A program made the translations under genes and the position numbers. Positions 41,065 to 54,738 of a stretch of 64,000 nt of DNA are shown here, in pieces. A model generated the notes under the pieces. It saw nothing but the letters and a program-made list of their open reading frames with translations, was not told where the DNA came from and did no database searches. Origin of the DNA: Gammaproteobacteria bacterium (GTDB lineage: Bacteria > Pseudomonadota > Gammaproteobacteria > JAJFKG01); assembly GCA_965116795.1 (NCBI GenBank), contig OZ220716.1, positions 2,282,503 to 2,346,502 on the forward strand, given 5' to 3'. Every line of letters starts with the position of its first letter. Positions within the stretch are counted from its first letter, which is position 1.

Positions 41065-41952
41065 TTAATTTAGTAAGTGACTCAGCGCTACTGCCAACGT
41101 CGAATAGGTGAAGGTAAACCCTGCATCGGTTAACCGTTTTGGAATCACCTGTTGCCCCTTTAATAATAACGTCTCTCCCATTTCAGCAAACAATAGCTTA
41201 ACTACCCAAGCAGGTAGGTTAAAACAGGTTAGACGTCTTAATTGTTTACCCAGTACGTGGGTAAATTCAGCATTAGTGACAGCCTGTGGAGCAGTTAGAT
41301 TAAACGCACCCGATAATTCAGGATGTTGAATGAAAAATAGAAGCGCACGGCATACATCATCAATATGTACCCACGACATCATCTGTTTACCATCACCCAA
41401 TTGTCCCCCTAAACCTAAACGAAAAGCAGGCAACATGCGTTTTAATGCACCACCTTGTTTACCCAGCACAATACCAAAGCGAGTTATCACCGTGCGCACG
41501 CTCAATGCCTGGGCTGTCAATGCAGTGGATTCCCATTGTTTACATAACCTATGAGTAAATTCATCATGACAATTGGTATCTTCATCTAATGGTGTAGCAC
41601 CTTGTGAACCATAATAACCAATTGCAGAAGCACTGATCAGTGTTGTGGGTAATGTTCGTGCACGCGAGATCCAATTAATAATCGCGTTAGTTGTATCAAT
41701 ACGACTATCAATTAACGTTTGCTTGTAAGCGTCACTCCACCGCTTATCAATTGGTGCACCGGCAAGATTAATAATCACATCAATGGATTTACCAGGATCA
41801 ATGTCTTGTAGTGTACGTACAAAATGCACTGGTTGCGGTGATGTGTTAACCGAACGTCTAGTCAGCACAATGATATGATGATTGTCTTGAATTAAATACT
41901 TAATTAAGTGACTACCAATAAAACCCGTACCGCCAGTTATTAATATGTTCAT
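41065..41952 (-). CDS. TIGR01777 family NAD-dependent epimerase (YfcH-like)
   Basis: ILITGGTGFIG, INLAGA.I, SASAIGYYG, GLGG.LGDGKQ.MSWVH and C-terminal DUF1731-like PKRL..AGF.F. Confidence 0.93.
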   Translation of the reverse strand: MNILITGGTGFIGSHLIKYLIQDNHHIIVLTRRSVNTSPQPVHFVRTLQDIDPGKSIDVIINLAGAPIDKRWSDAYKQTLIDSRIDTTNAIINWISRARTLPTTLISASAIGYYGSQGATPLDEDTNCHDEFTHRLCKQWESTALTAQALSVRTVITRFGIVLGKQGGALKRMLPAFRLGLGGQLGDGKQMMSWVHIDDVCRALLFFIQHPELSGAFNLTAPQAVTNAEFTHVLGKQLRRLTCFNLPAWVVKLLFAEMGETLLLKGQQVIPKRLTDAGFTFTYSTLAVALSHLLN

Positions 41953-53000: not shown

Positions 53001-54738
53001 CTTCTTTTAAATAGTCATATTCATCCACACAACCATATAAGTGAAGTAAGCAACTAGAGCGTATATCACGGAAGTTAGCGTTAGGCTTTCCGTCCGTATC
53101 AAAAAATAACGTTGACGGATGGTATTCGTGCAATAGCTCAATCAACTCAGGTTGCAACGTCTCGTCTGCCGTTAACGAACGCTCATTCAATTGGCCAGTC
53201 TTATTATCCAGTAAGAAAAGGGCTAAGTTCTCTGCATAGGCTCGCATATAACGAACCACTTCTTTTTGAGATAACTTAGGACAACTCGATGAGAGGTTTT
53301 TTGCTCTGCTTCGTCCAATTTCCTTAACAAACCAGCCACCACAAGGCTCACCTTTATCATTCGGCACACCTTCAAGAAAGTAGTGAAATACAGTACTTTG
53401 GGTAAAATGCGGTGTATTGATAGCGTCCTTTTTTGGCAGCTTGTCAATGTGCGGCAGGATGTCTGCTACCATGCGTAATAAAAACGGTGTCGTCACTAAG
53501 GCTTTGAGTGATGGTAATTGCTCTAATTGCTTAAGATAGCGTTCGCACTCCACTTCCGTCTCAAAACATGCTTTAAAATATTCCTGAATCTGTTCATCGG
53601 TAAATGGTTGTAAATACTGCCGAGTATACGTAGCTAACTGACCTGAAAACTCACCACCTGCTTCAAATAATGCCGATAAATTCTTATGCAGTAACACTTC
53701 GGGACGACAAGTAACAACGACCCGAATATCGTAACCATACTCACCCCATCCTTGCAGTTGATAAATGTTCTCGCGAAAGGTAATTTCATCAAATCCATCA
53801 AGAAAAATTAGCAACGGCTTTGTCTTCATTATCTCGATTTCTTCATCAGAAAACTTATGTTTTTTTAATGTCGTCTCTAATAACGTTCCTTTATCTACTA
53901 ATTGCTTCTCGCGATGAAGTTGCTTATCGTAATTCGGTAAGTAAATGTATAACAACAATCGGGGTAATGGTGCTTGAGGCGCTTCTTTAAGTTGTTCTCG
54001 TATCCGTCTCCATACCGTCTGGCAATAGAGCAAACTAAAATACGTCTTGCCCATCCCCGCTTGACCTAACAACAGGAGTGAGCGTTGCGAACTGTCGAGA
54101 AATTCGTTAACTTTATCTGCTAAAGACAAACAGCTTTCAGTGCTGGCTCTTTCGCTATCTGCAGTTAATGGTGAAATGTAAATTTCACCTAACCTCGGGT
54201 CAAATGCACCACTGTAGTAATCAGCAAGTAACTCTATCGGTGATCGTTTACTGGTGTGTGAAGCATGACTCCCAGCACTACTGCTGATTGACACACTGTT
54301 AGCAAAAATATTTGTCTGATTTTGATAAGGGTATTCACGTTCTTGTTTTGCTAGCCTTTCAGTCGCCTCTGCAGATAGCTTTTCTCCCTGAACAGCAGTT
54401 ACCTCATTACCTTCTCCACCACATACTAAATCCTCAGCAATAATTTTTAATTTATTGCCTTTGCCTCCACATTCAAAATGTGACTGATGTTCAGAGACAC
54501 TTCTATTGGAAGAATAAGATCGATGTTCTCCATCACCCTCACTAGCCAATTCCTTTTTCCGTCTTTTTTCTTCACGTTCATCTCTCGCTTGTTCTTCTGG
54601 TCTTTTCGTTTTTCTTGAAGAAGAGGAAGAAGACGATGAGGAGGATGGCACACTACTGTTACTAGAAAGTGTTTCTGAAGTTGATTGTGTTTGCTGATTT
54701 TCTGCTTCCTTTTTATCTAAAAACATACATAACTCCAT
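50050..54738 (-). CDS. NACHT - pentapeptide repeat - WD40 protein (NLR-like), 1562 aa
   Basis: Walker A GQAGMGKT, Walker B FLDGFDE, TCRPE, PFLLRM and FLHKS; pentapeptide stretch (GADLTGA, ANFSGADLT, NLQGAQMTGVQFGE); 14 WD40 repeats counted; GLSPDNQQLLEQRGA cap; true start may be ATG 54726 (GGAG upstream). Confidence 0.9.
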   Translation of the reverse strand: MELCMFLDKKEAENQQTQSTSETLSSNSSVPSSSSSSSSSSRKTKRPEEQARDEREEKRRKKELASEGDGEHRSYSSNRSVSEHQSHFECGGKGNKLKIIAEDLVCGGEGNEVTAVQGEKLSAEATERLAKQEREYPYQNQTNIFANSVSISSSAGSHASHTSKRSPIELLADYYSGAFDPRLGEIYISPLTADSERASTESCLSLADKVNEFLDSSQRSLLLLGQAGMGKTYFSLLYCQTVWRRIREQLKEAPQAPLPRLLLYIYLPNYDKQLHREKQLVDKGTLLETTLKKHKFSDEEIEIMKTKPLLIFLDGFDEITFRENIYQLQGWGEYGYDIRVVVTCRPEVLLHKNLSALFEAGGEFSGQLATYTRQYLQPFTDEQIQEYFKACFETEVECERYLKQLEQLPSLKALVTTPFLLRMVADILPHIDKLPKKDAINTPHFTQSTVFHYFLEGVPNDKGEPCGGWFVKEIGRSRAKNLSSSCPKLSQKEVVRYMRAYAENLALFLLDNKTGQLNERSLTADETLQPELIELLHEYHPSTLFFDTDGKPNANFRDIRSSCLLHLYGCVDEYDYLKEGEFKFLHKSVTEYLVAYKVMTEELSLMQAAEHGVDTSPPRRGLNRAFLVKEPEIIARLAEAARENPDFKRRLIDVLLASKHTQSLGRVASNSITILNAALVSFYGWDLRAVCIAGADLTGAICDKANFSGADLTDVMFYHASLRETNLQGAQMTGVQFGEYPYLEFEDECNAVAYSPDGKYLAVASGKVIHLFDATTRVLLRRLTSHKGEVTSVTIGGYGKLLVSGSKDKTVRVWDVERGKVCHILIGHEDEVTSVTISGDGKLLASGSKDKTVCVWDVESGKKRHRLTGHEEWVWDVTLSTDGKWLASGSRDNRIQVWDSGEHVRILTGHNYFVNSVTFSPDGKILASAGSLDETILLWDVQRGKLLRGLTEHKHGVTYVVFSPNGNQVASGSPEGDILISDIKMGKILNRFNGHKGGVTSIMFRPDSTQLVSSSNDKTVRLWSVEADKPLYRCGGHKEYVTNVMFSPDGSQLVSASWDSTILLWNTQTSEVIYKFIEHESNVESVTFSPDGSQLASVSSDGTVLLWGVQTGELIDAFIGYEDLFNYNIIFMFSPDGSQLALVSSDGTVLLWSAQTGELISEFIEHEAGVKNITFSPDGSQLALASLNTVWIYDSQTSKMLHKLTVYDQIGVMTFSRDGKQLASGSIGSGTVWIWNTQTGGLSYEFTEHDREITSLAFSWDGSRLVSGSQDETIYIWNTNTGKVHQILTGHDYGVNVVTFSHDDKQLASADGDGIVRKWHFLEGVLLEASGIHYEEAVLNTFILSWSSHPSSILALEGARIDDVYGLSPDNQQLLEQRGAKGTPLASDELPNVVEMDSISPQTYSSSSSQLTSPASFFSSSALSSPQATSSASFVQQALRRLDAQHRTSAPEKWKQFVDWYLCREPSEEAYDEENRQRKSLTRIRKSTEQGINILASAQVILTGQQLPQQATSVDTDERQQSPSHSPSSLFAPVAANQFIPKEKEEGEEEQQEERNEKAFEH

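Follow-up and report, generated by a model that had tools for sequence, protein, structure and literature searches.

A shared two-rung motif and putative -1 frameshift junctions suggest effector-coupled NLR signaling in a gammaproteobacterium

Can a NOD-like receptor (NLR) of a single-celled bacterium pass its activation to a separately encoded effector through a shared amyloid-like motif, and how might the two partners be kept in proportion? The question is raised by a 64,000-nucleotide stretch of a Gammaproteobacteria bacterium genome (contig OZ220716.1, positions 2,282,503 to 2,346,502; hereafter the window), where three minus-strand genes, which we call A, E and B, are flanked by sucB and an epimerase-family gene. 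The original prediction, made from the sequence alone, was that a motif of about 45 residues links two NACHT sensors, A and B, to one effector, E. The genome is a single contig of 2.45 Mb, 98% complete, and was compared with two further genomes of the same family. Our preferred answer, held with slightly better than even confidence, is that NACHT oligomers template the motif as a beta-solenoid and so activate a death effector, and that related loci produce both a free effector and an effector-sensor fusion by frameshifting. Of the two parts, coupling by frameshifting is better supported and also more surprising; the putative amyloid function is plausible.

Results

A motif shared by a sensor and the adjacent effector

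The three stretches singled out on A, E and B translate exactly as first reported, and those of A and E align without gaps at 18 identities over 45 positions. Although this identity count is unexceptional in itself and is also attained by shuffled sequences, the likeness lies beyond chance by substitution score, with a best 45-residue BLOSUM62 score of 90 that none of 150 local shuffles reached (mean 39, maximum 60). Further copies are found on the paralogue E2, encoded about 60 kb away from the A-E-B genes (G000:C1:2267297-2269348, locus L001; 34% identical to E), whose C-terminal copy is 58% identical to the motif of A, and on P0004, an NLR of another organism from a Logan contig (48% identical to A, seen without gene context), at residues 91-140. 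Held-out profile hidden Markov models (HMMs) recovered A (E-value 2.6e-16), E2 (8.2e-14) and P0004 (1.3e-13), as well as E (Table 1). The recurrence of G-x-x-N at a 16-residue spacing, claimed for A, E and B, is true of these and holds in all five copies, and the proposed layout is that observed, with the motif N-terminal on the NLR A, C-terminal on the adjacent E and again N-terminal on P0004.

A profile search of 1.84 billion representative proteins returned eight, namely the four training sequences, in which the motif is confined to NLR N termini and effector C termini, and four repeat proteins (P0056-P0059) that were rejected as carriers, their scores being sums of weak chance matches in cadherin-like and fiber repeats. 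The scatter over unrelated proteins that had been set beforehand as the contrary outcome is absent from this search: the motif is thus no scattered tag, but its family is very small. Among 45 relatives of A, the motif occurs on P0004 and A itself only; at 62% identity to A, P0003 has another G/N/V-rich stretch at its start (residues 9-40), which suggests motif exchange. Other N/G/V-rich stretches, candidates for further motifs like that of P0003, lie just before the NACHT domains of P0075 and P0076. A cluster look-up also returned fragments of E and of B that belong to another assembly.

Predicted fold and composition of the motif

AlphaFold, applied to four motif sequences, places strands at positions 2-5/11-16 and 18-21/27-32, an identical pattern in the two rungs, and a helix at positions 38-50, with a mean predicted local distance difference test (pLDDT) of 70, so that the motif is predicted to be a two-rung beta-solenoid with a trailing helix. 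A complex prediction with two E and two A motifs scored 0.00 and is used neither for nor against this model. Pfam holds profiles for the HRAM, RHIM and sigma amyloid motifs. A Pfam scan of eight motif regions matched no such amyloid-motif family, which agrees with the suspicion that the motif is unlike recognized amyloid motifs, although short motifs are often missed by HMMs; its 16-residue period also differs from the 21 residues of HRAM.

The rungs are rich in G (15.0% versus 6.3%) and N (10.8% versus 4.4%) and poor in P (0% versus 4.2%) and L (5.0% versus 10.4%). Bacterial amyloid signaling sequences (BASS) are described as rich in Q, N, G, V and I and poor in K, P and L. That composition is only partly matched, as Q, V, I and K are unshifted in the rungs and Glu is enriched, a first point against an amyloid function.

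A candidate effector whose domain is also found fused to NLRs

In A, a Ser-rich, basic disordered head is followed by the motif, a NACHT-type NTPase, pentapeptide repeats (residues ~683-735), WD40 propellers and a Glu-rich tail. Related proteins with the NACHT-pentapeptide-WD40 architecture come from Mortierellaceae fungi, from Mycoavidus and from other bacteria. The view that neither A nor B has a recognizable N-terminal effector domain agrees with the absence of any Pfam domain ahead of NACHT in either. The adjoining E does carry the C-terminal motif assigned to it, but it is not an anonymous protein, as it bears a Pfam ARM_5 domain. Its order is a HEAT/ARM-like solenoid, a Gly/Ala-rich hydrophobic segment, a disordered linker with a basic cluster and the motif, and its structure model resembles only generic HEAT solenoids (best Z 9.9, root-mean-square deviation 4.5, 164 aligned residues). 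The most hydrophobic 19-mer, which has low pLDDT in the E model and a counterpart in E2 (Kyte-Doolittle 1.94), is a candidate membrane-inserting segment.

A joint profile of E and E2 matches the N-terminal domain of A relatives (P0024 at an E-value of 1.7e-8 and seven more between 1e-5 and 2e-3, among 45). The E-type domain is also N-terminal on the NACHT-HEAT relatives of B P0077, P0085 and P0086, and is present on a NACHT-HEAT protein of the same-family genome G002 (E-value 1.7e-5). The effector domain of E is thus an N-terminal domain otherwise fused, in all-in-one proteins, to relatives of both A and B, a classic sign of a two-gene signaling pair. We infer that Pfam ARM_5 corresponds to the published NLR_Helical domain, which PMC9815663 reports with WD40 sensors in Mucoromycota and HEAT sensors in Ascomycota, and also in Mycoavidus. 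The NACHT-WD40/HEAT proteins of Mortierellomycetes, Pezizomycotina and Mycoavidus share both the sensor families and the homologous helical N-terminal domain with the present system, but they are described as all-in-one, whereas here ARM_5 occurs by itself on a protein that ends in the motif, an arrangement pointing to a proximity-activated effector.

No homologue of E residues 45-480 was found among 8000 candidates of similar length, an atlas search gave no usable match for E, and alignment of the effector against viral contigs gave none. In genome G002, a 2361-aa protein (L021:4158-11240) combines an ARM-like domain, NACHT and HEAT repeats behind an N terminus with an H-D-C pattern, which we take to be protease-like.

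Four effector-NLR pairs joined by -1 overlaps

Outside the window, four further effector-NLR pairs have open reading frames (ORFs) that overlap in the -1 frame at slippery sites. At L001, the 3' end of E2 overlaps N2, a paralogue of A (68% identical) that lacks a motif of its own and whose first ATG lies 124 codons in. At L009, an MLKL_N protein (Pfam E-value 8e-7) with two beta-rich repeats overlaps a paralogue of B, B2, which has a single repeat of similar kind and lacks a start codon within the overlap; P0060, a JGI relative known without DNA context, keeps the B2-type repeat and begins with a residue other than Met. At L011, two tandem effectors of unassigned family bear two repeats apiece and overlap with NB-ARC-TPR genes that have one similar repeat; the atlas offered for this effector only leads below 0.9 (DUF4765), and it was not found in 399 other genomes of the class.

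All four junctions combine an in-frame X_XXY_YYZ heptamer within the overlap and a long -1 ORF, as in programmed -1 frameshift genes. Among long ORFs, an in-frame XXXAAAG occurs in 3 of 225 -1 overlaps and in none of 136 +1 overlaps, and all three are effector-NLR junctions (hypergeometric 2e-6, the sites being only partly independent). The heptamer is C_CCA_AAG twice, a sequence found in frame only eight times in the long ORFs of the genome, and A_AAA_AAG once; V_VVA_AAG heptamers are among the best frameshift sites in E. coli (PMC4066793). Three junctions (both of L011 and that of L001) have a heptamer, then a 6-nt spacer and a GCTCATC stem; a genome search for this stem finds the three junctions and only one further site. 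Compensatory pairs distinguish the two L011 hairpins (-28 and -20 kcal/mol), and one junction hairpin reaches a z of -5.3.

The assembly was checked in sequencing-run contigs at two of the four junctions: that of L001 reads identically in X2, X3 and X6 (the last from another study and of low depth) and that of L009 in X1, X3 and X4, runs X1-X4 possibly coming from the source study. The same contigs expose a second break in the L009 NLR as an assembly error, which serves as a control. Taken together, the junctions suggest that programmed frameshifting likely yields a free effector and an effector-sensor fusion. The arrangement resembles bacterial programmed -1 frameshifting in the IS3 family, with an X_XXA_AAG heptamer and a hairpin 5-8 nt downstream, and differs in that it would join an effector to an NLR. 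Another bacterial example of programmed -1 frameshifting is dnaX. The literature covered, which included few subscription papers, holds no report of frameshift-coupled NLR-effector genes, nor of comparable motifs in a bacterium of this type.

Candidates rejected in the course of this analysis include two viral matches to the frameshift cassette, judged to be chance, and split ARM_5/NACHT ORFs in metagenome loci, which look like fungal introns apart from one Mycoavidus locus with an in-frame stop. A joint skipping most of E2 in frame at L001:12568-14305 (X2 and X3, low depth) is distrusted because one side spans 24 nt; run X5 has a loose end at the same site, and the joint may stem from a gene of another strain in which the motif lies close to the start. 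Separately, the WD40 repeats of N2 (L001:9164-12325), which is interrupted by an IS66-like element, are highly alike, with a mean of 74% over six repeats versus 34% over seven in A. Such likeness is known from the fast-evolving NWD sensors of fungi.

A divergent copy on B

The motif of B lies where it was first placed, but it is weaker than implied and counts in part against the two-sensor picture: its ungapped scores are at chance level (reached by 83 of 150 and 48 of 150 shuffles) and a leave-one-out HMM fails to recover it. A two-rung position-specific scoring matrix (PSSM), built without B and designed with the pattern known, ranks B as the best non-training match over 505,510 positions in genome ORFs of at least 300 aa (13.7 bits; next 11.9; training members 56-72), and none of 5000 shuffles of B residues 1-150 scores as high. 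Its PSSM rank thus makes B probably a divergent member. Of the proposed convergence of two sensors on E, the A-E half stands on their shared motif, while B is probably a second, weaker input.

Features of the locus

The coordinates of the locus are collected in Table 1. Regulation common to A and E may pass through the 100-nt element upstream of each, of which the genome holds no third copy. Short repeats resembling repetitive extragenic palindromic (REP) sequences, present in many copies across the genome, occupy the A-E gap (49600-50050). The repeat of ~283 nt inside B, presumably akin to coding mobile palindromic elements, is also read in frame in at least one ankyrin-repeat protein (G000:C1:1692760-1695525).

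Table 1. Features of the A-E-B locus, in coordinates of the window.
Feature	Position	Strand	Basis or remarks
A, 1562-aa NLR-like sensor	50050..54738	-	NACHT, pentapeptide repeats and WD40
Motif on A, aa 88-132; two 16-residue G-x-x-N rungs and helix	54343..54477	-	
E, 693-aa all-helical putative effector	47214..49295	-	
Pfam ARM_5 in E, aa 177-261	48513..48767	-	E-value 9e-10
Most hydrophobic 19-mer of E, aa 267-285	48441..48497	-	Kyte-Doolittle 1.96
Motif on E, aa 642-686	47238..47372	-	Held-out HMM E-value 5.8e-7
B, 1708-aa NACHT (aa 423-597) and helical repeats; second candidate sensor	41949..47075	-	
Divergent motif on B, aa 85-130	46686..46823	-	For: PSSM; against: shuffles, leave-one-out HMM
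Dispersed repeat inside B, ~283 nt, in frame	46039..46321	.	7 further genomic copies, 85-100% identity
54-nt direct repeat flanking the ~283-nt repeat in B	45972-46025, 46344-46397		
100-nt element upstream of A	54972..55071	-	89% identity with the E counterpart
Matching element upstream of E	49413..49511	-	

Discussion

A working model and its weak points

In the working model, whose stacking, templating, membrane damage, in vivo frameshifting, ligand and place of action we infer, ligand sensing would lead the NACHT sensor to oligomerize and its motifs to stack into a beta-solenoid seed, which would template the motif of E and cluster the E helical domains; these are predicted to damage a membrane, with cell death as the outcome. 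At the frameshift loci, one mRNA would give mostly free effector-with-motif and a minority of effector-motif-NLR fusion at a fixed ratio, and at L001 a single motif could serve both products. The likeliest victim is the bacterium itself, when phages attack it, a view favored by analogy with Bab/Agp and by the extra loci, which border ORFs that we take to be phage-lysozyme-like or recombinase-like. That the genome of this host-associated bacterium encodes at least five NLR death circuits with several unlisted amyloid-like motifs, three effector types (ARM_5, MLKL_N and an unassigned helical domain) and a reusable -1 frameshift cassette is a joint claim to which we give slightly less than even chances.

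Several observations weigh against this model. The motif family comprises five proteins only, and a motif-bearing effector-NLR gene pair was found in a second genome for none of 40 relatives, in none of 3068 ORFs from 53 related loci and in none of 45 relatives of B. The conserved C-terminal helix and the presence of two rungs on both partners are atypical of an amyloid. Among the other pairs, motif matches are weak (N4b at an E-value of 0.079, N4a unrecovered, B2 at 2.3). The heptamer of the fourth junction (A_AAC_CCC, L011) was noticed after the fact and its NLR has a Met just before the motif; at L001 the NLR may start at a GTG and the hairpin is modest (z -1.65), a hairpin is not evident at L009 (z -0.35), and a check of 22 related loci from other organisms found no such junction. 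PADLOC matched neither E nor B, and A in its WD40 region only.

Alternative explanations

The genome also carries a Dot/Icm-type gene (DotI/IcmL, E-value 2.9e-52; present in both family relatives too), so that action inside a host is possible, and the motif could assemble within a eukaryotic cell if these proteins were Dot/Icm substrates mimicking host NLR or necroptosis signaling. We consider this improbable, even though seven MLKL_N proteins, several with kinase fusions, and a family common to fungi and their endosymbionts would suit it, as would the Glu-rich C termini noted by eye on A and other NLRs and the basic clusters ahead of the motif, which we presume to resemble translocation and nuclear localization signals. 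DotA and TraG-D_C are unmatched in the genome (the DotA profile matched no control either); the presumed phage and recombinase neighbors of the extra loci are more like mobile defence cargo, and a ratio fixed by a single mRNA counts most at the site of protein synthesis. The genome also has no match to VipB of the type VI secretion system or to FHIPEP. Beyond the MLKL_N protein of L009, six more MLKL_N ORFs begin at G000:C1:1102720, 1160290, 1208102, 1489991, 1551776 and 1634091; the one that was scanned is an MLKL_N-kinase-Sel1 protein, and MLKL_N matches occur in only 2 of 40 relatives.

Still less probable, in our estimate, is that the motif folds into a small beta-roll-plus-helix adaptor acting stoichiometrically, like a death domain, rather than a propagating amyloid. 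The helix after the rungs is conserved in A, E, E2, P0004 and B, and even in B2 and P0060, whose rungs are unrelated; each partner has two rungs, the rungs are charged, and AlphaFold folds the motif as a monomer at the pLDDT given above. Against such an adaptor, two short rungs would leave beta-edges open, fold searches with the motif model found no solved look-alike (best Z 3.1), and the motif lies in disordered linkers, at positions typical of amyloid motifs.

Least of all do we credit the motif as a linker remnant left by duplication and fission of an ARM_5-linker-NACHT gene, with the -1 overlaps as decayed fusion genes: the all-in-one ARM_5-NACHT relatives, the upstream element common to A and E, the insertion sequences that cut the L001 and L009 NLRs in this strain and the absence of the motif system from close relatives are all compatible with it, but the G and N positions of the motif are retained at 35-53% identity between diverging flanks, P0004 retains an N-terminal motif at 48% NACHT identity, E and E2 stop at nearly the same point past the motif, and random decay is unlikely to have placed the best slippery heptamers at three NLR junctions or to have kept a 6-nt spacer with a covarying hairpin.

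Relation to known systems

Templating of E by NACHT oligomers would resemble, in its working, both fungal NWD2/HET-S and BASS signaling (10.1101/2020.01.06.895854, 10.1101/2024.11.07.622273, 10.1101/2021.12.02.471044, PMC4518210 and PMC12261475). The BASS screen took at least five pairs as its standard of recurrence; here a single genome holds the only two-gene pair and its one overlapped paralogue, so membership in HET-S/NWD2 or a BASS class is not established. Like A and E, the fungal system pairs an adjacent NACHT-WD40 protein bearing an N-terminal motif with an effector bearing a C-terminal one, its pseudo-repeat conserves G and N, and its effector domain also occurs in all-in-one proteins; its two repeats on the effector and one on the NLR recall the MLKL_N pair of L009. 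It differs in its 21-residue rungs, against 16 here with two rungs on both partners and a trailing helix, and in its HeLo effector, against ARM_5 in a bacterium with a frameshift-coupled paralogue.

With BASS1-10/Bell and Bab/Agp (BASS11), the present system shares collinear bacterial gene pairs, often overlapping, and a G/N-rich, P/L-poor motif. BASS motifs span ~25 aa (21-40), versus 45 aa here; effectors other than Bell are known, and that found here is new; and the carriers are mostly multicellular Actinobacteria and Cyanobacteria, whereas this is a single-celled, Dot/Icm-bearing bacterium. The sections consulted on BASS describe the overlaps as polycistronic genes and do not mention recoding. 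The motif was set apart from the BASS classes by their descriptions, and a match to a published class is possible.

If the model holds, it would add a motif family and an effector to amyloid signaling, extend such signaling to single-celled bacteria bearing Dot/Icm, and provide the NLR_Helical/ARM_5 domain, common to fungi and their endosymbionts, with a function that can be tested. The frameshift junctions would link all-in-one and two-gene NLR systems directly and allow the ratio of effector to sensor in a signalosome to be set, the two architectures becoming two translation products of one gene. The overlapping effector-NLR pairs common among BASS genes may likewise conceal recoding and merit a recheck, because they would be annotated as separate genes or as pseudogenes.

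Two minor observations concern the rest of the genome. At L010 (G000:C1:2220906-2226533), a 1876-aa all-in-one protein combines NB-ARC and TPR repeats with an N terminus that, from its G-H-S-L-G motif, is presumably lipase-like. Four ORFs of 670-760 aa (G000:C1:1419542, 1476226, 1538343 and 2105996) share an identical segment; they are probably copies of a phage tail gene, which suggests several related prophages.

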